DNA of 62,624 nucleotides, filler included, from Globobulimina sp. (GCA_003354225.1; 19 parts of 19 records of this genome joined end to end with filler, not necessarily neighbours in it); one strand, 5' to 3'; positions 22,465 through 52,325 are shown, counted from the first letter of the whole stretch. The notes: a model not told the origin generated them from the sequence alone. Program-made: numbers and translations.

Positions 22465-22923
22465 TCATTGCCATCTTCTAACACTTGAGACTTGGTTTGA
22501 ATTATAAGCAACATACTCAGCACCCCAAAAACCTCCCGATCTCGGTATATGCACAGAATTATATCCTTGCTGGTTTACCTTTTGCCCATTTAATGATTTA
22601 TTGCCATTATGATGAATGGTTTTGGTGTTACCCAAAGCGACATCTGCTTGCAAAATAGAACCATGTTGGTGTGCTTTGCGATTTGTAGCGTATGGGTTTG
22701 TGGCGAAATAAATACCCGGTCCGGCCATGCCTTTTTTGCCGAGGTTCATATGTTGACTCGATGTGATTGAATTTGCTGCGGCATGCGATGTTTGGTGATA
22801 TAAAGTCGAATACATTTTCTGATCACAATTACTGCAATATTTGCCCATAAGACCGGTTGCTAATTGATGTTTACCACTATATCTTGAACCACAGTTCGAA
22901 CATTGGATACTTTGTTGAGCCAT
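22465..22923 (-). CDS. Small PARP-catalytic/Gig2-like ADP-ribosyltransferase with N-terminal zinc ribbon
   Basis: H-Y-E-type motifs LYHQTS, GPGIYFAT, GYNSV and EYVAY. CSNC...CSNC at the N-terminus. Confidence 0.8.
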   Translation of the reverse strand: MAQQSIQCSNCGSRYSGKHQLATGLMGKYCSNCDQKMYSTLYHQTSHAAANSITSSQHMNLGKKGMAGPGIYFATNPYATNRKAHQHGSILQADVALGNTKTIHHNGNKSLNGQKVNQQGYNSVHIPRSGGFWGAEYVAYNSNQVSSVRRWQ

Positions 22924-23126
22924 TCTGTTTTATTCGCGTTTTGTTTCACAGAAAAAGAAGTTGAATTTCAAGTTAGTTGAATGAATGAAAGGTGGAGTGG
23001 AGAAGTGAGTTTATCAAGTTTTTAATNNNNNNNNNNNNNNNNNNNNNNNNNNNNNNNNNNNNNNNNNNNNTTAATTAATTAANNNNNNNNNNNNNNNNNN
23101 NNNNNNNNNNNNNNNNNNNNNNNNNN

Positions 23127-26427: not shown

Positions 26428-29400
26428 TTATGCGAGAGATGGTACATAAGATTTTCATCCAAACAACAACATTCGATATCATTCCAATACAAAGTGTTCC
26501 GACCAATGGTAAATATGTCGCAAAGTGAACCGTATCAAATAAATAAAATGAGATATGATAACTACAAAATTACAGATTTGAATAATAAAACAAACAAAGA
26601 TATTTTGCGAAGTTTTATCGGATGGATTTTGACGGTGAAATGCGAGTATCATCGATGTAAAGGCCGACTGAAATTAGATTGTTTTTGTACACCTCCTGAT
26701 TTCCAGCGATATTGCTATTATTTTATACTACGTATCATTTCCTTTGATGGCAATACATTGATAGATATAATACAAAACATTAAATCACGGACAATATCAA
26801 AGGTTGGTCAGGAATTCTACGATGTGGCATTGACTGACGATTTGAAGCAAGAAGAGTATGCGCAAACATTTAAGGAGTATATGCTGCAATGGATGAGATT
26901 TGATTTATACAATTTTGAATGTGATAATTGCCACCACATCAATAAAAGCATTATGATCAACCGGATATTTGAGTATTCCGTATCATTGAAACATTGCAGA
27001 TTATGCTCTTCATCGCGAAAAGACCAACTCATTGAAAATGCCTTTGATTTGGATAAAGCCATTGAGCATAGAAAAAATACTAAATATGCCAATCAACCTG
27101 GAAAGTTCGATAAATTTAAATTTCAAACTGGACAGGTTATGAGATATTGTGTGTTATCGCCAAAGTTCACTTCATTTGCACAAGAAATATTATTGAATGA
27201 AGTCGTAGTGATTACAAAGGATGAATGGGATTTATTATTGAATAAAGCAAAGAAAAAAATGAAAAAAATCAATCAAATATTAAAAAGAATGGCCAAGACA
27301 GCGGCAGGAATTGTAAATCATTATGTCAGTCATGAAACGGATATAAATTTCGGAATTAACCAATATGAAACCATTGGAATTAACCATCTGATCGCGGTGA
27401 TGTTATACAAAGGCAATCAAATGGATTATGGCTCGCGTTTTGTTGATTCGTTTTGGTGTCAAGATGGCACTCAAAACAATTTTTATTGGCTGGGCCGATA
27501 TCTGTTTGAAGCAGTATTTTTTTTCGGTGATCGCGTCGATGAGATTAATAATGCAAATACTAAATTCTATCAAGGACATAATCATCGTTTTTATTTCGAT
27601 TCCTTTGCGACAACTATTAATTGCCCGATATCATCGACAGGGATTGGTTCCGCAAAAAGATCGTGCGGAGATAATGGATGTTTATTGGAATATATACCAA
27701 AATATTATGGACCGATTGATAACACAAAAGCTTTCTCATTGAAATGGTATTCATCCCATTCGAATAATGATGAATGGCTATTTATGGGATCCAGCAAATT
27801 GCAAATCATATTTAATACATTCACCGCCAGTAAGTTTCATGCCAATTATCAGCAAACCAACCGCGCCATATTGTATTTGGAGAAATTACTGTTGCAAAAT
27901 ACATTTGATGTTCAATTTTATGCCACTGCCAATGGCTCGTTTTATGAATCCACTGTAATGCAAAAAGCATTTGATTTAATTGATAATATGGTTAAAAATG
28001 ATATAAAATCGTGGTTTGAGAAGACGCTGATATTACCACAATATTATTCTGTATTTATTGAAAATGGCTACAGCGATTTTGATTCGTTTAATAAGATTGA
28101 TGTGGACGCAATGGATAATATGGGTATACTTGAAAAGGAACATAAAAAACAGATATTATCGGAAATACATGTTTTAAATGTTTTCAATTATTGGCGTAAA
28201 CAAAAGACTTTTGTCCGATTTGAGACATTGAAATTGGAGATGAAATATATGGATTATAAATTAAAAACATTTTTGTATAACGAGAAAGTGCATGCGATCA
28301 ATAAAGACAATGTAATGGAATTATTTCCACATTTAACCAGTTACACTGACATCAATGGCAATGTTGTATTATTAACACAAAATGAGCAGAAAACCGATGA
28401 TTCGGAGCAACCAAGAAATATTAATAGGAATTTGCATCATCAGTTGTTGATTAATGCACAAATCCACCAAATACCAGAGCAGATTGCATCTATTTTAGAA
28501 GAAGAAGAAGAATTTAAGTTCGGTGGATGTGATAATATACCAATGACTGCGCTGACACTCGTCTTGAAACAAAGAATGAATTATAACTTATTGTGTGACA
28601 AACAAGCATTTATTACACAGTTATCGGCTGTGACCTTTTTACAAATGAATATTGATGAATTATATTGCAAAATTATGCAACAATTAAAGATGGAATCAGC
28701 AAATTGTATTATTACGTTTATTAGCTCTGAATTGAAGAAAACATTTAACGATTATCACGAGAACGATATTGCTGATTTTGTACTGGAGATTGACGCATTG
28801 GGCATTTCTGAAAAAGCAGCTACGACAATTTATACCACGTTGAAAAGCATCAAAGCAGAAAATCCGACGCAAGAAATGATGTTTCAATCATTGATGAATA
28901 ATGAAAATATTGCATTGGAAGATATGCTGACTGTGATAGAGTACAAATTGCAGCAAAACCATGCAAACTATGTAAATATTGTTGACGCCGCATTGAGAGA
29001 ATTAAAGATTACGGTAAGCATTGCGTGTATGAGCAAATTATCCGTCGATTACCAATTATTTGAAAGTCTCAAAATATTTGCAAGCCGAATGAATGCAATT
29101 GGCGTCGATGAGAGTGTAGCAACGAATGTTTTTAATGCACTCATTGCCAAACAAGTCCTTCCCGATAACTGGAGAGATAAAATAACAAAATTAATAGTAT
29201 CCAATGTGAAGACATCAGACATTGACAGCAATGCCATTGGCGCAGTAATGCAAAAAACAGCGTTTATCACTTACTATGCCGATCCATTGTATTTGCTCAG
29301 TAAAGCCCTCCTGAAGAGAGACAATATAAAATATAAAGAAATTCACGATGGCATTGTTGAAATGGATATATTTAACGGCGATATACCAAAACAAAGAGAA

Positions 29401-29628
29401 TTTGCCAGGAAATTATTTAACAAAGTTTTTGAAGATAGAGAAAGGATTAATTCTTGGAATTGCAAATTGTGCGGATTTAAGAATGCTGAATTAATGGTTG
29501 GCGGCTTATGGTATTATTATAATGAATTGGCTCAATGTGGGTTTTGTGGAGAGCAGAGATATTCCGATGGTTCGACGCAAATTTATACCAAATCAGCTGA
29601 AACAAACAAAGACGCAGAATCCCAACAA
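26428..29628 (+). CDS. Large protein fragment: zinc finger, ART-like domain, SAM domain, zinc finger; open across the whole contig
   Basis: CDNC...CRLC; HLIAVMLY...FYQG...PISST...NDEWLF; SAM-like IKSWFEKTLILPQYYSVFIENGY...MGILEKEHKKQIL; WNCKLC...CGFC. Confidence 0.75.
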
Positions 29629-33294: not shown

Positions 33295-34521
33295 TTATAA
33301 ACCGTCAACTTCCACATTTTGCAATATGCACAGCCAATCTCTGTATTTTGTAATATTAAACTTTCTATCTTTGAATCGCTGTTCATATTTCTTTACTGCG
33401 TTCACAACACTTAGATTGCTGTTTGGTTTTGCTTGAATCACTATCTTCGCCAACTTTGATTTATTACTTTCCTCGTTATTTAAATGAAATAATATGTTAT
33501 CCATCGTCGTAACGCATAATCTTACATTCTTCACTCGAATTTCTTTTACATTTGGAAATAATACATTGATTTCATTAATTTGTATCCATTCACATTCTCC
33601 ATAAAAAATCAATGCAAAAAGCGATGGATATTGCATTCTTTCATAATAATCTATTTCTAAACATTCTACATTTTTACAATAAATATCAACCATCTTTTTT
33701 CCATAATCGCTCAATGAACGAAATGGTTTGTATTTGGATAATGAATGAGATAGCTGACCCTCAATAATTGCTGTTGCTAATGCTAACATTGAGGAACTAA
33801 CCCGTTGGCCAACCAAATATTTTCCATTTAAATGATACTCCGTACACAATTCTATTATTCCCGGTGGAATTATTTGATTTTCGTCTAATACATTTCTAGT
33901 GAAACTATATGTTAATAAATGTTTTTCATATTTAAAATACTGCGTACAATCCGTAATAAAACGTAATGTGTCTAAAATGGTAACATATTTGGTCCCCGAT
34001 GAGCATTCTATGATATTATTAATCTCTAAGCCATATCCGTTATACACCAATAAATATTCATCTTCGTAGCCGAAATCAGAACACCAACTTAATGCAAAAT
34101 ACTTAGCATTGGAATTTGTTGGTTGATGCGCACCAAATTCGACAACTAAACCTCGATTTGCAAATTGTATCGCAACCGCAAATGATGAAGTGGTGCTAAG
34201 TGGACAGAATATTTTCAAACCATGCATATGGCCACCAATTATTTGTGGAAAGGCCAATTTAGCACTAATTCCATGATAAAATGACTTGATAGTACCATTC
34301 CCGATTCTTGTTCCAAATCTAAGCACTGATAATTTGAGATACATCGCAAAATAAAAGAAATTATTATGTTTGTTGGTATTTTCTCTGTATGTTTTTTGAA
34401 AATGAGACGTGAAACTCGTAAAATTGGAATATATCATAAGTGTTAATAAATTTTCAACGAACATGTTTGGATAATTGCCGCCTTTTGTAATTTGGTTCTG
34501 TAACAAAATATCAAATGACAT
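33295..34521 (-). CDS. ARTC-like ADP-ribosyltransferase-domain protein, N-terminus apparently missing
   Basis: LLTLMIYSNF...FQKTYR, FYHG, PLSTTSSFAVAIQF, WCSDFGYEDEYL. Clear paralog of 49744-52325. Confidence 0.7.
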   Translation of the reverse strand: MSFDILLQNQITKGGNYPNMFVENLLTLMIYSNFTSFTSHFQKTYRENTNKHNNFFYFAMYLKLSVLRFGTRIGNGTIKSFYHGISAKLAFPQIIGGHMHGLKIFCPLSTTSSFAVAIQFANRGLVVEFGAHQPTNSNAKYFALSWCSDFGYEDEYLLVYNGYGLEINNIIECSSGTKYVTILDTLRFITDCTQYFKYEKHLLTYSFTRNVLDENQIIPPGIIELCTEYHLNGKYLVGQRVSSSMLALATAIIEGQLSHSLSKYKPFRSLSDYGKKMVDIYCKNVECLEIDYYERMQYPSLFALIFYGECEWIQINEINVLFPNVKEIRVKNVRLCVTTMDNILFHLNNEESNKSKLAKIVIQAKPNSNLSVVNAVKKYEQRFKDRKFNITKYRDWLCILQNVEVDGL

Positions 34522-34602
34522 ATACAGAACTTGTTGACAAAATTGACAAAAAACTTTATCTCAAAATATCAAATTGATAAAAAACATTATTCAAAATTGA
34601 CC

Positions 34603-35090
34603 ATGGGCGCTACCTGTGCAGGCCCTTGTTGTGCAGGTTGTTGTTCGACAGCTGTATATAAAAAAGTCGTAAATACCGAAGTCAAAAACCAGGTACATAT
34701 GTTTCTAAAATCTCCATATAGAAAACAAACACAGTTCCATCCATTCAATTATTATGTACAAAATACGTCCAGGATTGGGCAGATGCTGTGAAAAAAAATA
34801 ATTTAACAGGAATTAAAATATTACATCATGAAGACCCAGGCCTCGTGAATGAAGCGGTCGACGAACATGGCGGAATGGCGATACATTATGCTGTCAAAAA
34901 TAAGCACGAAAAATTATTGCTATACGTATTGAACAATGGAGCCAACGTGAATGCGCAGGGCGGCCCAAATTACAATTCGGCGTTGCATGAAGCCACATTA
35001 CTTCAGGATTTCACCGCCATTCGCAAACTGTTCAGTTATGGCATTAACGACCAATTGAAACTGGAGTGGATTGCGATGAGATTGCAATGA
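34603..35090 (+). CDS. Acylated ankyrin-repeat protein N-terminus; intron 34693-34772
   Basis: MGATCAGPCCAGCC; AIHYAVKN...LNNGANVNAQ...SALHEA. The frame breaks after ~35060. Confidence 0.75.
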
Positions 35091-46231: not shown

Positions 46232-49200
46232 TTCTTCGATCGCCCGCTCTTGTATACAATGAGAGGGTATGAGGAGGCTCAGCAGGCGTCGGAGACCGAA
46301 CCTGCTGTTGAGGCGACGGAAGAGAAGACATCGTATGAGACGCAGACGTAAACCAAGGCGAAGGCGGCGAAAACGCACTGGGAGAGCTTTGGTGAAAACG
46401 ATATTAGGTCCTAATTTAGGTATATTTGTATACATAAAAACTATGAAAACGCACAAAAACACATTTTATAGGCAAGTATGGGCATAGATTGGGTCGAAAG
46501 AGACGAAAAAGACGCAGACGCAGACCCAGAGGCAAACGGAGAAGACGAAAGAAACATAGACGTCGACGTAAACGTAGACGTAAAAAACGTATCCGCAGTT
46601 TCGGTGCGCAAATGGATGAAAATAACATGGAAAATGAGTATGAATATTATTACGAAGATGATATGATCAATGCATTTGGAGCCGAGGCCATGTCCTCCAC
46701 CTTAAATCTAATGGATTTGGGCGAATATGATGGTTCCGATGAGCGGCAATTACGAAAATGTAAAACGTTTTCCATGACGGAAACCTGTGTGACTTTGGAC
46801 GCAAAGCGTGGCGATGTCCAATTAGAAGTATCTGTGGGTTCACTAAAGGCCAAAGAAGGGTATGCTGCACATGCATGGCAGCAAGAAAACGGCGAAAACG
46901 AATATTATGAGTACACCGATGAAGATGTAGAAGATGAATGGTTTGACGAAACTGAGCAGACCGCGTGGATGGTGAGTGATGTTGCCGCAGACGAAGAATA
47001 TGACGATCTCTGGAATGATGATACTAACTGGGAGCAAATTGATGAGATACAAACCTTATCCGGTAACAGATTACAACGTAAATGTCTACATCTGTGGGGA
47101 CAACGATTATGTTTATGCCAATTTTTAGCGTTTTTGGATAATCGCAAGTTTAAATGCCAACCCAAAGGGCTGTTTTATAATCCATTAGGTCCCGGTCCTG
47201 GCACTGGTGGCGGTGCAATGACTCAATCACAAATGAAAGAGATACAAAGTGTACAAAGCATAAAAAGTATACCCAAAATACCCAAAATAAGCAAAATACA
47301 TAAGAAGAGTACCGGTGTTGGTCCGAGCGAGAAAAGCATGAAAAAAGAGATTAAGAAAGTGGAAAAAGTGAAGGCAGTCAAGCCCCAAATGTCCAAGAAT
47401 AAGTTAAAAAAAGTGGTGAATAAAGCGCTGAAAAAAGCGGTAGAAAAGGCTGGGAAGAAGGAGAAAGCCGCGATTTTGGCGAAAAAGAAACGCGGATTGT
47501 TGATTCCGAAACATTTGCCGTATAGATTTGAAGGGATCAAGTTGCCGAAAACACCGCCGAAGTGGTTGCCTCATTGGATGTGGCACGAGTTTACTGTACA
47601 AAATGAACAACACAAACAAGAGAAGAAGACGCATACAGCGATAAAGAAGAAATTGAAAGAAGGGATTAAGAAACAACGGGCAAAGGAACAGAAACAGATA
47701 AAGAAGGAAGAAAAAGTGCTGTTGCAAGCGCGAAAACAAGCGGAGAAACAGATTAAGAAAGAGATTGCAAAGGAGATCAAATCGGATGAGGTGAAGGCTG
47801 CGGTGGAGACTCAGAAGAAGGCGGTCAAAGTGGCGAAGAAAGCAGTGAAGAAAGCAAAGGTTACCGAGAAGGAAAAGGAAAAGTTGAAGAAAGCCACTGT
47901 GAAGGTGATAAAAAAGAAAGTTGCGGCGGATATCAAAGCGGCGGTTTACAAGAAGTTATCTCGGAAGAAAGGAGGGCGGAAGTTATCTACGCGCGAAAAG
48001 GAGAAGATTAAGAAAAAAGCGATTAGTGATATTAAGAAAACAGTGGATAAACATGTTACTGCTAAATCTAAGAAATCTGCCGCTATGGATGCATATTATG
48101 ACTTTGATGATGAATATTACGACGATTACGATGAATACTATGATGATATGGATTATTACGATGAATATTATGATGATGAAGGTGAAATGTATGATGATTA
48201 TGATTATGAATCGTATGATTTGGATGATGATTTTTACGATGAATATGACGATTTGGATTATGATAGTATTCAAGATGCAATATCTGAGGACGAGGACGCG
48301 GAGGAAGAGATTGATGAGGAATATGAAGATGCATTGGACGAATTATATTACGATGTATCTAATTATTATGATGACTATGATGGTATGTATTATTACGAAG
48401 ATGTCTCCGATAACGAAGAATATAGCATCGCAGAGAAAGCGCACTGGCACGATGACCGAGATGACAACGATTGGGTCGTCAGTTCGCTATCCACCTCGGA
48501 TTTAGATAACGTATGGGAAGACCCGTCAGAATGGGAATTGGTGGATAAAGTAAAGACCGCTTCTGGTCGCATGGTACAACGCAAATGTTTACATATGTGG
48601 CAACATCGATTATGTCTATGCCAATTTTTAGAATGGATCGACGACGCCAAATATAAATGTTATCCACGAGGACAAGCCATGCCTATCATGAAGAAAACAC
48701 CTAAACTCGGTGCAGCCGCTCCCTCTGCCCCCAAAGTCGTCAAGAAATTCAAGAAAATCGTCAAGAAACTGCGAGTGGCCCAGAAACCGGGCGTAGCACA
48801 AAAACCATTGTTAGCCAAACTATCCGGCGACATTAAAAAATTAGAAACCATCGAACAGAAAAGAGCTGCAGAAACCGGCCAAAGCAATGGCAAAACCAAA
48901 TCATTATTGAAGAAATTAGCCATCAAATTAGGGAAAAAGGCACAACAACAACAGCCAGTACGCCCTGGTAAAGCCAGGAGAGCCTATCCACCCAAGCAAT
49001 TAATGAAGAAAACCATCCAAGCCGGCAATGGCGTCCGTGCCATGGCAGAAATGGAAGATATGGCGAACCCGCCATTGCCCGGCGATTATGCTGTACCTCA
49101 CAACACCGCCGCCTCCCAGGCCCACAACGCTCAGTTGAGTCATATTGAAGCATTATTGGCCCATTTATTAGCCGCCAAAACGGCAAAAGGCGGTGGAAAA

Positions 49201-49430
49201 CCAGCTGCATTGGCACATTATTCACCGTCTGAATCGGAGAGTGCTGAGCATGGTTATACCACACCGGATGAAGTTCGGCGCCGATACCGCCATTCGGAGC
49301 GGTTGTGGCGCAAACGACAACGGGGTGAGGGTCCCGGTGGCAAAGTGGGGAAGAAGCATGGCTTAGGCCGTGCGTTAGGTGGCATGTTTAAGGACGTCAA
49401 TTACCACCCCGATCGACTGTTAAACTCTCA
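46232..49430 (+). CDS. Charge-block low-complexity protein with a duplicated Cys module, both ends truncated
   Basis: Poly-Arg, D/E/Y-rich and Lys-rich blocks, with two copies of QRKCLH.W..RLCLCQFL...D..K.KC.P.G. Probable intron ~46420-46487. Confidence 0.75.
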
Positions 49431-49743: not shown

Positions 49744-52325
49744 ATGGCCGGTGTGAATGAAGAAAGCAATCAAGATATCGATGAAAAATGCAAACCAGAA
49801 ACAACGTTGACCAATGATGATGATTTGCAACTTTACCAATCTGTATTTAACATGTTTTCAAGCCCATATGCGCCATATCAGCAAAATAATATTATTGGTG
49901 AGCTACTGGAGCCTGATCTGTTAGGTATTAACACGGACCATGTTTACAACAATGATCGTTATGATAATTATGGAGAAGAATGCACTGCAAATACCTCATC
50001 AATCAAAGATGGATGCAATCAGACAAAAAGAATTATTGCCGCATTAAAGCACTATCAATGTCTGGACGTTATCAACAATGAAAACGATAAAGCAGAATTA
50101 GTAAAGCATTGCCACCAAAAATATAAATCATTATTGGACGATTATATTCATATTTTGGTGGAACATAATAACCAAAAAGATTTAGATGAAATACGTGATT
50201 CGCTGGCAATGGATTGTAACATTCAAAAGTGTTTATTCTCAGTCCGACATTTTAGAAACAGGAACAATGATAAATATATTGAGGAAAACGAAGAAGTAAC
50301 GTTTTACAGAGATATTATGGACGCAATGCATTGTTATTTAATGCATTTATATGACTGTGGTTTGCGTGTTAAAATGGATAAAATTGAACAAAAACAAGCA
50401 GATCGCGGTCGATTCTTTGATCAGAAGTTTTCATCCATTTGTGAGCAAATAAAAAAACAGCAACAGAAATCCAAACACATTGTTAACTATAACGAGCAGA
50501 ACAAATTTGATGTGATGCCACAGAATGAAAATTATAAAGATTTTGCATTCATGGATGGCTTTTATGCCTTCATGACGCGACAGATCAATACGCCAAAGAT
50601 GCAGCAAATAAATACATTGCTCACTCAACACGAATATGACTCTGATGTCGTACATTTAGATATTAACTGCAATGATTGTAACGACGACGGCACAAATTCC
50701 AATATTGGACAACATTTAGCAAATAAAATCCAGTACGATTCAATCAAGAAATATATGCTTGATATCAAACGTATGTTAGATGTGTTGAACTGGAACATGT
50801 TCATTTTTGTATACATATTGATAAATAATTAAATAAAGTGCACAAACATACGTTTATCATTGGCCATAGGTTTTATTATTGGCAATATTACAAATATCAA
50901 CGTGAAGAATCAGATGGTGATAATTCAGATGATTCGTGGGATGAATTGGATGCTAAACGGAATGAGTTATTTGTAGAGGCAAAATATGCATCCATTAAAG
51001 AAGAAATATTAACGAATACAATCTGTCCCCTCAAACAGCACAAATATCGAATAAGTATTCACAAAGCAAATAAATACATACAGACAAAGCAACGAAATGA
51101 GACAATATGTTATGTCGACTATTTACATTACGATCTTGACAGCGGAACGGTGCTGTCTTTGGAACACATACTATCCGTTATTTTGTATTGTGACTGGACA
51201 GATTTATGCAGCGCTTTTTCAGCCACATTCCGGCAAAAGAATCCCTACGAATCGCAGCTTGCGATCAAGCAAAGAAATCGTCAATTTGCGCAATGGTCTA
51301 AATTGTTGCGGGAAACAGTGGAATGTTTTGGTTTTACGTTTGGTGACATGATAACGGGCCCATTCTTCTGTGGCATGTCATTTGTGATTGTTATGCAAGA
51401 ATTTCATATACGATTATGCGGCCCGACGAGTACAAGCAGACAAATTGCAGTCGCTCACCGGTTTGGAGGCGATAAAGGCATTATAATGCAATTAAATAAT
51501 GATAATTTTGATGATACTGACTTACCGCTGTTTGGCTGTTCGTGGCTGTCAAATTACCCCGGCGAGGATGAGTGGCTTTTTGTTGGTGGTTTGTGTAAGT
51601 TAAGGATTGAGAATGTGTTCATTGTGCAAATGAAGCAGGATTTTGAACCATTCTTTAAATGTTTATTTGATTTTGATTGTATGTTAGATGGCAGTCAGCC
51701 ACATATGTTGTATGAGGCTGATCTCTGCGATGATGATCATTTAATATTGGATGAGTTAATTAGGCATAAATTGAAAATAAATGGATTCGTAAATAGTTAT
51801 ATCAAATATATTAATAATACATTTGACGCATTTATTAATCATAAAACTCAAATTGTCCTTAATTTGCATTTTATTAATGAATATTTTTCAGGCATTTCTG
51901 GTTTGATTTTGAATCCATTGCTTTGTATCGACAGTGCTGAGAAAAGAAAAGAAAAATTGCCGATAATCCCATTAAATCTTGGAGCTACAAATGTATTTAA
52001 AGCAATAACATTGGATTTGTTTCCAAATGTAAAAGATATTTTGATTCATACTACGAGTACATCAGCATTTGAGCTATTAATTTATCCGTTTGATTTGTTA
52101 TCGTTGTTACACAATATACATTCATCCCCATTATGGACTACAAATGATCTTAAAATTACAATCACTGCACATTGCTATGATGAAGTTAGACGGAGTTGGA
52201 TATTTGATGTATTTTCAACATCCATTGCTGCAGAATTGCAAAATAAAAATTTAACTGCTCATTTAGTAGAAACAACGGATGATACAGGTTCAAAACAGGA
52301 CAGTCTAATCATTACAAAGCAATGA
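49744..52325 (+). CDS. Full-length ARTC-like ADP-ribosyltransferase-domain family protein; intron 50771-50838
   Basis: LLDDYIHIL..H, HFR.R, DAMHCYLMH.YD.G.R; then HILSVILYCD...FSATFR, FFCG, GPTSTS, WLSNYPGEDEWLF. Confidence 0.75.

Follow-up and report, generated by a model that had tools for sequence, protein, structure and literature searches.

The locus at positions 49744..52325 of a Globobulimina sp. sequence raises the question of whether its product belongs to the ADP-ribosyltransferases (ARTs), and what such a protein may do when its first active-site motif is altered. Cholera-toxin-like ARTs carry an arginine in strand beta-1, an S-T-S motif, and an E-x-E catalytic loop. The initial annotation of the locus proposed an apparently expanded family of toxin-type, ARTC-like ARTs with a non-canonical first motif. 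The window that was analyzed, a stretch of 62,624 nucleotides including filler, consists of 19 unrelated contigs (18 had been counted initially) of approximately 3.2 kb each, joined by spacers; its genes are eukaryotic, and the source assembly comprises 70.2 Mb in 48,370 contigs.

Three related copies and structure of the gene

The three contigs on which shared motifs had been reported contain all four motifs in the same order. On the plus strand, the first copy, which is the gene under study, carries HILSVILY at 51165, FFCG at 51363, PTSTS at 51423, and WLSNYPGEDEWL at 51543, and the second carries HLIAVMLY at 27385, FYQG at 27565, PISST at 27625, and WYSSHSNNDEWL at 27745; the third, on the minus strand, carries NLLTLMIY at 34429, FYHG at 34270, PLSTT at 34189, and WCSDFGYEDEYL at 34051. 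This ordered pattern matched three times in six frames and not once in 200 shuffles, a control that is circular because the pattern was derived from the same three copies. In a pattern-independent test, the domain of the third copy was used as the query and retrieved the other two with genome-wide E values of 3.9e-7 and 3.1e-6. As initially read, STS or STT together with EDE is present in two copies, and the profile alignment puts Cys, His, or Gln at the Arg position.

The frame of the second copy (26428..29628, plus strand) is open along the entire contig; its ART core (27364-27807) is degenerate (FYQG, PISST, NDE), and a true SAM domain lies 3' of this core on the same strand (27982-28185; SAM_1 E 2.2e-8). 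The third copy (33295..34521, minus strand; ART core 34015-34464) is of the His type (FYHG, PLSTT, EDE), and neither a Cys/His nor a SAM-like domain was found on its contig. It begins approximately 80 bp from a divergently oriented plus-strand gene (34521-34604).

Other parts of the window showed further features. A small zinc-ribbon and PARP-like protein is encoded at 22468-22929 on the minus strand (PF00644 E 5e-4, below the cut-off), the fourth ADP-ribosyltransferase-like gene of the window and one of another class. The contig at 42932-46131 has a higher GC content (0.43) and open reading frames unlike those of its neighbors, and may derive from another organism or element. A 994-residue open frame at 46447-49428 (plus strand) contains long Lys-rich and Asp/Tyr-rich tracts and a Cys motif, RKCLH.WG/Q.RLCLCQFL, that occurs twice.

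The gene annotated at 49744..52325 was retained, but it comprises two exons (49744..50770 and 50839..52325, plus strand) separated by a 68-nt GT..AG intron at 50771..50838; the spliced frame is open for 837 codons and then reaches a stop. The intron was skipped in contigs of the read runs X2, X6, and X8, which come from three studies, and a contig of run X7 has a loose end running into exon 2. The spliced form derives most likely from transcripts because the genome retains the intron, the types of these runs being unlisted or guessed as RNA. A Pfam scan of the gene yielded zero matches. The domain order of the 837-residue product is a Cys/His domain, a SAM-like bundle, an ART2-like domain, a helical region, and an alpha/beta cap.

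Fold and register of the ART domain

We modeled exon 2 with AlphaFold by using 82 sequences (pLDDT 91.6, pTM 0.91) and compared the model with 48,161 chains by using VIA. The results revealed that rat ecto-ART2.2 (ARTC2.2, 1gxy, PF01129) was the best match (Z 14.1, rmsd 3.2, 192 residues aligned, model residues 2-269), followed by Tre1 (Z 11.1), XopAI (11.0), HopU1 (10.4), and ExoS (9.6), with Vis at 8.1, and that the best 19 matches were all ART-domain proteins. All seven Foldseek matches at E ≤ 0.001 were rat ART2.2 (E 9.6e-6) or XopAI, which ranked second, and Atlas features assigned 0.95 to PF01129 clusters. The check by AlphaFold and Foldseek that had been suggested for the C-terminal region thus recovered the split beta-sheet ART fold. 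Judged by its model, the domain (50841..51647, plus strand), which includes an N-terminal helical lobe, is a member of the ART superfamily; its motifs are predicted to converge on one cleft because this follows from the fold match, and the domain would work like an ART2.2-type enzyme if active.

The alignment with ART2.2 extends over the helical lobe and covers 192 of 223 residues, with the S-T-S motif and the catalytic Glu in register, whereas sequence identity is 12%. Tre1, HopU1, ExoS, and Vis, the Arg-specific bacterial ARTs, share the fold and the E-x-E loop but, unlike the family, keep the first-motif Arg. Of the toxin-type, ARTC-like assignment, the R-S-E-class ART fold is upheld by AlphaFold, VIA, and the profile comparison; the likeness to cholera toxin is not, the nearest fold being of the ART2.2, HopU1, Tre1, and XopAI type.

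When a profile built from 77 family domains was aligned with that of six YRG-type canonical ARTs encoded in this genome (P 93.6%, E 2.1e-7), FFCG fell on YRG, PTSTS on the strand bearing S-T-S, and EDE on the E-x-E loop; the canonical profile itself retrieved Vis, HopU1, XopAI, Tre1, and ART2.2. Pfam, NCBIfam, and PDB sequence searches with window proteins and family alignments returned no significant ART match; 9 of the 77 family domains weakly touched PF01129 at E ≤ 1 (best E 2e-4), not above the Pfam cut-off.

Conservation of the active site

On the plus strand of the gene, Arg474, the helix Arg at the position termed aliph-R, is encoded at 51231..51233; the first motif FFCG, with Cys520 at the beta-1 Arg position, at 51363..51374; the S-T-S motif PTSTS, with Ser540, at 51423..51437; and the E-D-E catalytic loop, with Glu585 and Glu587, at 51564..51572.

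Among the 112 of 145 own-genome domain pieces in which three motifs were aligned, the beta-1 position held His in 51, Cys in 28, Ser in 14, Thr in 7, Arg in 4, Gln in 3, and other residues in 5, and among 211 of 221 public domains it held Cys in 110, His in 42, Thr in 23, Ser in 19, Gln in 5, Arg in 5, and others in 7; both tallies are biased towards the queries. The own-genome tally also takes in another family, of the Ser/Thr type, and counts too few members of the Arg clade, in which an intron interrupts the domain. The first motif is therefore non-canonical as initially described, being mostly His or Cys in the aligned domains; an Arg-bearing clade nevertheless exists inside the family. 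CpG decay of Arg codons was rejected as the origin of His, Cys, and Gln, the CpG observed/expected ratio being 0.97 (80 contigs) and the residues being fixed within clades.

The central Ser was present in 111 of 112 own-genome and 206 of 211 public domains, the last Glu in 109 and 204, and Glu at the first E-x-E position in 109 and 203, respectively. Across 348 domains, the last Glu (0.97), the first Glu (0.96), the Ser (0.96), and the beta-1 Gly (0.96) ranked within the top 8 of 157 columns, so that active-site columns are 96-97% conserved against a mean domain identity of 38%. The helix Arg was retained in 89% of these domains as T-[FY]-R, preceded by an aromatic and not an aliphatic residue, and in profile alignments Arg474 fell on YLR of HopU1 and Vis and on VLE of XopAI. 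In the Cys class, which includes the gene at 49744-52325, Ser was retained in 139 of 141 domains, both Glu residues in 137 of 138, and the helix Arg in 137 of 140. A further Arg before S-T-S was found in 118 of 141 Cys-class domains; the His class mostly lacks it (Arg in 10 and Lys in 9 of 103).

An E-x-E loop points to an arginine acceptor, as in ART2.2, Vip2, and ExoS, and its first Glu selects the acceptor. The first-motif residue, fixed within clades and different between them, would also fit transferases that act on a nucleic acid or small molecule, or use another nucleotide donor, the motif change being a change of substrate. R-S-E enzymes that modify DNA exist, the precedent being pierisin (available parts of PMC3482391 and PMC3417536). 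The best fold matches are, however, protein-arginine enzymes, and the loop is E-x-E rather than Q-x-E at the frequencies of the first Glu given above, which leaves this substrate change with a slim chance.

The available part of PMC6829252 names four R-S-E features (arom-R, S-T-S, [QE]-x-E, and aliph-R) and treats the beta-1 Arg as a defining residue for NAD binding. The family has S-T-S, [QE]-x-E, and aliph-R; the arom-R pattern [YFL]-R-x is absent, Cys520 standing in its place, and is present in a nested clade of 11. The Tyr that marks the central motif of the H-Y-E class is also absent, Ser being found in 96% of the family. Of the XopAI-type features, the loss of the beta-1 Arg is shared, but the two changes that give an acidic cleft, a Glu at aliph-R and an Ala-substituted STS, are not. 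We assigned the domain to none of the three types because it lacks arom-R, the Tyr, and two XopAI features. The His-Gly of His-type copies resembles HG[ST] of Tox-ART-PARP (PMC3482391, available part) among the H-Y-E ARTs (PARP and diphtheria-toxin type), yet the central residue differs and no PARP occurred among the 50 best VIA matches; the first-motif His looks convergent with that class.

Several observations argue against an active enzyme. The NAD-binding beta-1 Arg is gone from most copies, and most of the His class lacks the Arg before S-T-S as well; moreover, XopAI of Xanthomonas (6k94), the third-ranked VIA match, is described in the available part of PMC6829252 as lacking the first-motif Arg (FTG) with an unchanged catalytic loop, binding an Arg peptide, and having a cleft unsuited to NAD+. 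By this precedent, the family may consist of pseudo-enzymes whose cleft no longer uses NAD+ and instead binds arginine-containing or ADP-ribosylated peptides, acting as receptors or decoys; bacterial effectors, or the targets of such effectors, may be what they recognize. XopAI has the same fold (180 residues aligned), a non-Arg first motif, and an intact [QE]-x-E loop; E-x-E could be retained for Arg binding, and hundreds of diverse copies fit a receptor repertoire. However, XopAI reads FTG, VLE, and AAS where the family reads F[CH]G, T[FY]R, and S-T-[ST], and the family therefore shares one of its three changes, having kept the helix Arg and S-T-S/T (96%). The nested clade with the full R-S-E set also opposes the loss of NAD+ use, and XopAI is an injected effector, whereas the family is a nuclear eukaryotic multigene family. 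We consider the pseudo-enzyme interpretation unlikely.

Accessory domains and localization

Among 145 Met-started homologues of at least 600 residues, the full order of Cys/His, SAM-like, ART, helical, and cap regions was found in 63, and 21 more lacked only the cap; the Cys/His domain was present in 112 and the SAM-like bundle in 101. The AlphaFold model of exon 1 is all-helical (pLDDT 87.7).

The Cys/His domain (49981..50367, plus strand; residues 80-208) is a helical domain without a known family that contains two C-x4-R ... D-x2-H-x4-H units. Conservation was complete for H196 and H201 (152 of 152 each) and high for C163 (142/144), C158 (139/144), H136 (122/140), H141 (123/138), and C91 (107/120). 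On the basis of these conserved units, the domain probably binds metal. Pfam, Atlas, and fold searches gave no match for it, and the likeness between its two units is confined to the motif level (hhalign P 9%, E 0.0036).

Immediately 5' of the ART domain lies a five-helix bundle that is SAM-like by structure only (50545..50769, plus strand; residues 268-342). SAM domains accounted for 25 of its 50 best VIA matches (rmsd approximately 2.1-3 over approximately 60 residues), at Z values of 4.4-6.4 that lie below 8, the caution level of the tool. The BICC1 SAM domain aligned over 60 of 63 residues (rmsd 2.1), those of tankyrase and SARM1 were among the matches (Z 5.0-5.7), and eIF2-alpha domains matched equally (Z 6.4). 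SAM_1 and SAM_2 profiles matched 0 of 19 members, a PDB profile search found none, and hhalign against four true SAM domains gave P 0.15% with a shallow template. The family-specific helical region and small alpha/beta cap (51648..52322, plus strand) were modeled with confidence, and their matches, to methyltransferase-like and LRR sheets, were weak and lacked specificity; a methyltransferase reading of the cap reached VIA Z ≤ 5.1 and Foldseek E ≥ 1.5e-3.

In tankyrase and SARM1, SAM domains hold the enzyme off until clustering or ligand binding. These proteins (SAM-PARP and SAM-TIR, respectively) resemble the family only in how they work, in that a bundle of the SAM type immediately precedes the domain that uses NAD; their catalytic class differs, and the bundle in the family is predicted from a model. 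The adjacency, with the SAM domains of both proteins among the matches, could indicate NAD+ glycohydrolases in which SAM-like clustering triggers NAD+ breakdown, as cell death or an ADP-ribose signal, and not transfer to protein; the catalytic Glu is conserved, and ART2.2 also hydrolyzes NAD+. Against such NAD+ breakdown, the acceptor-selecting first Glu is as conserved as the catalytic one, and accessory domains of a targeting type suit protein substrates. We regard this alternative as distinctly unlikely.

A minority of homologues add PITH, UBA, PUB, IBR, PH, FYVE, Ras, RasGEF-kinase, WH1, FH2, CAP-Gly, MYND, FN3, ricin-B, or true SAM domains. Such domains scored above the cut-off in 3 of 26 and 8 of 57 long homologues, most of which add nothing known, and some fusions may reflect chimeric transcript assemblies. 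Some proteins carry ART domains in tandem (two or three), and frequently one of them is degenerate, with E-x-E lost, whereas another is intact; genuinely degenerate copies therefore exist and differ visibly from the rest. Giant proteins of 1,300-3,000 residues (P0068-P0089, P0199) have two or three ART domains, often degenerate at the N-terminal and intact at the C-terminal position, with almost no Pfam matches. In L097 and L098, ankyrin-like repeats, as read by eye, are joined to an ART whose first motif lacks Arg, and in L090 ubiquitin-like domains are followed on the same strand by a canonical YRG ART.

Animal ecto-ARTC proteins (PF01129) have a signal peptide and a GPI-anchored or secreted location. 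Unlike ART2.2, the family showed no hydrophobic N- or C-terminus of the secretion or GPI type in any of 109 long homologues by crude hydropathy, which placed an internal membrane-like stretch in 8 of 109; it differs from ART2.2 also in the extra Cys/His, SAM-like, and C-terminal domains and in its hundreds of copies.

The same genome encodes erasers and readers of ADP-ribosylation, with 23 ADP-ribosylhydrolase matches spread over 21 contigs, 12 Macro matches, and 24 WWE matches, counts that come without a eukaryotic control and that the canonical ARTs and PARPs of the genome could account for. At one locus (L228, G000:C3562), two minus-strand genes adjoin (3149-1844 and 1756-3): a gene with Macro and SAM domains and, immediately downstream of it, a His-type gene of the family. 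Their first 22 residues are identical; the pair may place an eraser or reader next to a writer, or may result from an assembly join.

Size and history of the family

Four pooled searches found the family on at least 309 different contigs of the genome. The Chao2 estimate was approximately 400 copies, a lower bound, and first-look candidates numbered 510. We also searched an unselected sample of 80 contigs chosen by number (452,773 bp), which contained 3 copies, with 0 in reversed controls; the sample was drawn from ranks 150-1900, hence long contigs only, and all 3 copies were already among the 309. It scales to 465 copies per genome (95% interval 96-1,360). Alleles and fragments can inflate all of these counts. 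The two estimates thus place the family at about 400-500 copies. At 500 copies per genome, the probability of at least three copies in this window is approximately 0.01, and the three found are a lucky excess. Thousands of copies, extrapolated from three per window, were ruled out by the unselected sample; such scaling overstates the family because that sample gave 3 copies in 80 contigs. The very large family originally proposed is accordingly one of hundreds and not the thousands that the window alone suggests.

In public data, 4,521 clusters (50% identity) matched the family profile at E ≤ 0.001, of which 1,774 reached E ≤ 1e-30; the best 150 were inspected. Of 30 homologues looked up, the 22 that were named all belonged to Bolivina argentea or Nonionella stella, which makes a foraminiferan host most likely. 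Searches that reach close relatives only gave no match in phages or viral contigs and one 16-residue chance match in prokaryote genomes, and no viral fold match was found at E ≤ 0.001; a viral or prokaryotic donor was rejected within this reach.

A high copy number and some degenerate copies, including the second copy of the window, would also be expected if the family were a decaying repeat, or cargo of a mobile element, that no longer has a function. Long open frames argue against decay: stops occurred inside 8 of the 150 genome matches listed, some of them perhaps introns. Among the 33 differences between run X6 and the gene that were listed (40 of 111 listed in all), 22 were non-synonymous and 11 synonymous, against an expected 4.3 to 1, and neither transposase nor reverse transcriptase was among the Pfam matches of the proteins scanned. 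Together with the spliced form and the active-site conservation at low mean identity, the open frames largely refute decay, which we regard as very improbable.

We constructed a quick IQ-TREE phylogeny (133 rows, 161 columns, SH-aLRT support only, midpoint root) in which the first-motif column was kept and outgroup branches are long. One branch (SH-aLRT 99) set the 114 rows of the family off from the six canonical ARTs and from a second family that lacks the Arg. His occupied outer branches, including all 34 rows of one clade with long end branches, and this fixation indicates that the His replacement was selected and did not arise by drift. The 11 Arg rows with the full R-S-E set formed a nested clade (SH-aLRT 99), and 24 Cys rows lay within a clade of 28 (99). 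The simpler reading is that His was the early state of the family and that Arg was regained later; alternatively, Arg was lost repeatedly. In the Arg-bearing (YYRG) clade (L102-L111, L116, L125, L128), the S-T-T motif is often followed by an intron, and a UBA-like domain is often present.

The second foraminiferan ART-fold family (L094, L099-L101, L130-L146; 46 matches) has Ser or Thr in the first motif (LYSG, IYTG) and an E-x-E loop. It formed a separate clade of 13 rows (SH-aLRT 99), and one copy has PH and SAM domains. Within this genome, replacement of the Arg occurred at least twice.

Discussion

The literature searched, chiefly open-access, contained no description of this family or of an "H-S-E" ADP-ribosyl type, although absence from print is not thereby proven, and the available parts of PMC3482391, PMC3417536, and PMC4245714 do not mention it; this ART-fold family is apparently undescribed so far.

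Our preferred interpretation, to which we give an even chance, is that the family comprises cytosolic, regulated mono-ADP-ribosyltransferases built on the ART2.2-type R-S-E fold, a lineage-specific expansion of foraminifera in which His or Cys took the place of the beta-1 Arg in most copies. The fold, the register, the conservation, the copy number, and the splicing are shown directly by the analyses. We infer from them that the cleft would still bind NAD+ by means of the retained helix Arg, the beta-1 Gly, and the S-T-S strand, and that the last Glu would cleave the bound NAD+, with E-x-E suggesting an arginine as the acceptor. More tentatively, the Cys/His domain and the SAM-like bundle may hold the enzyme off until clustering or ligand binding, and swapped accessory domains (UBA, PITH, PUB, PH, FYVE, Ras, WH1, CAP-Gly) may direct copies to different targets. 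The role of such enzymes would be in signaling or cell-autonomous defense, both of which the annotation had raised, and the data favor neither.

A bolder extension, which we hold to be doubtful, is a kinome-sized cytosolic ADP-ribosylation system. Each foraminiferan genome would encode approximately 500 active enzymes of a new His/Cys-Ser-Glu type, with a new metal-binding domain and a SAM-like module for clustering to gate them and exchanged accessory domains to aim them. These enzymes would form the cell-autonomous immune or signaling network of the lineage, and in the Cys clade the first motif may in addition provide redox control or a covalent intermediate.

To our knowledge, eukaryotic toxin-type (R-S-E) ADP-ribosyltransferases are represented mainly by a few animal ecto-enzymes. 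Because His, Cys, and Arg types occur naturally among paralogues that share one scaffold, the family offers a direct test of whether catalysis needs the first-motif Arg, and the gene also bears a well-conserved Cys/His domain without a known relative. If a protist group of major ecological importance has hundreds of intracellular copies that Pfam does not detect, these would constitute a large hidden layer of NAD+ signaling or defense.
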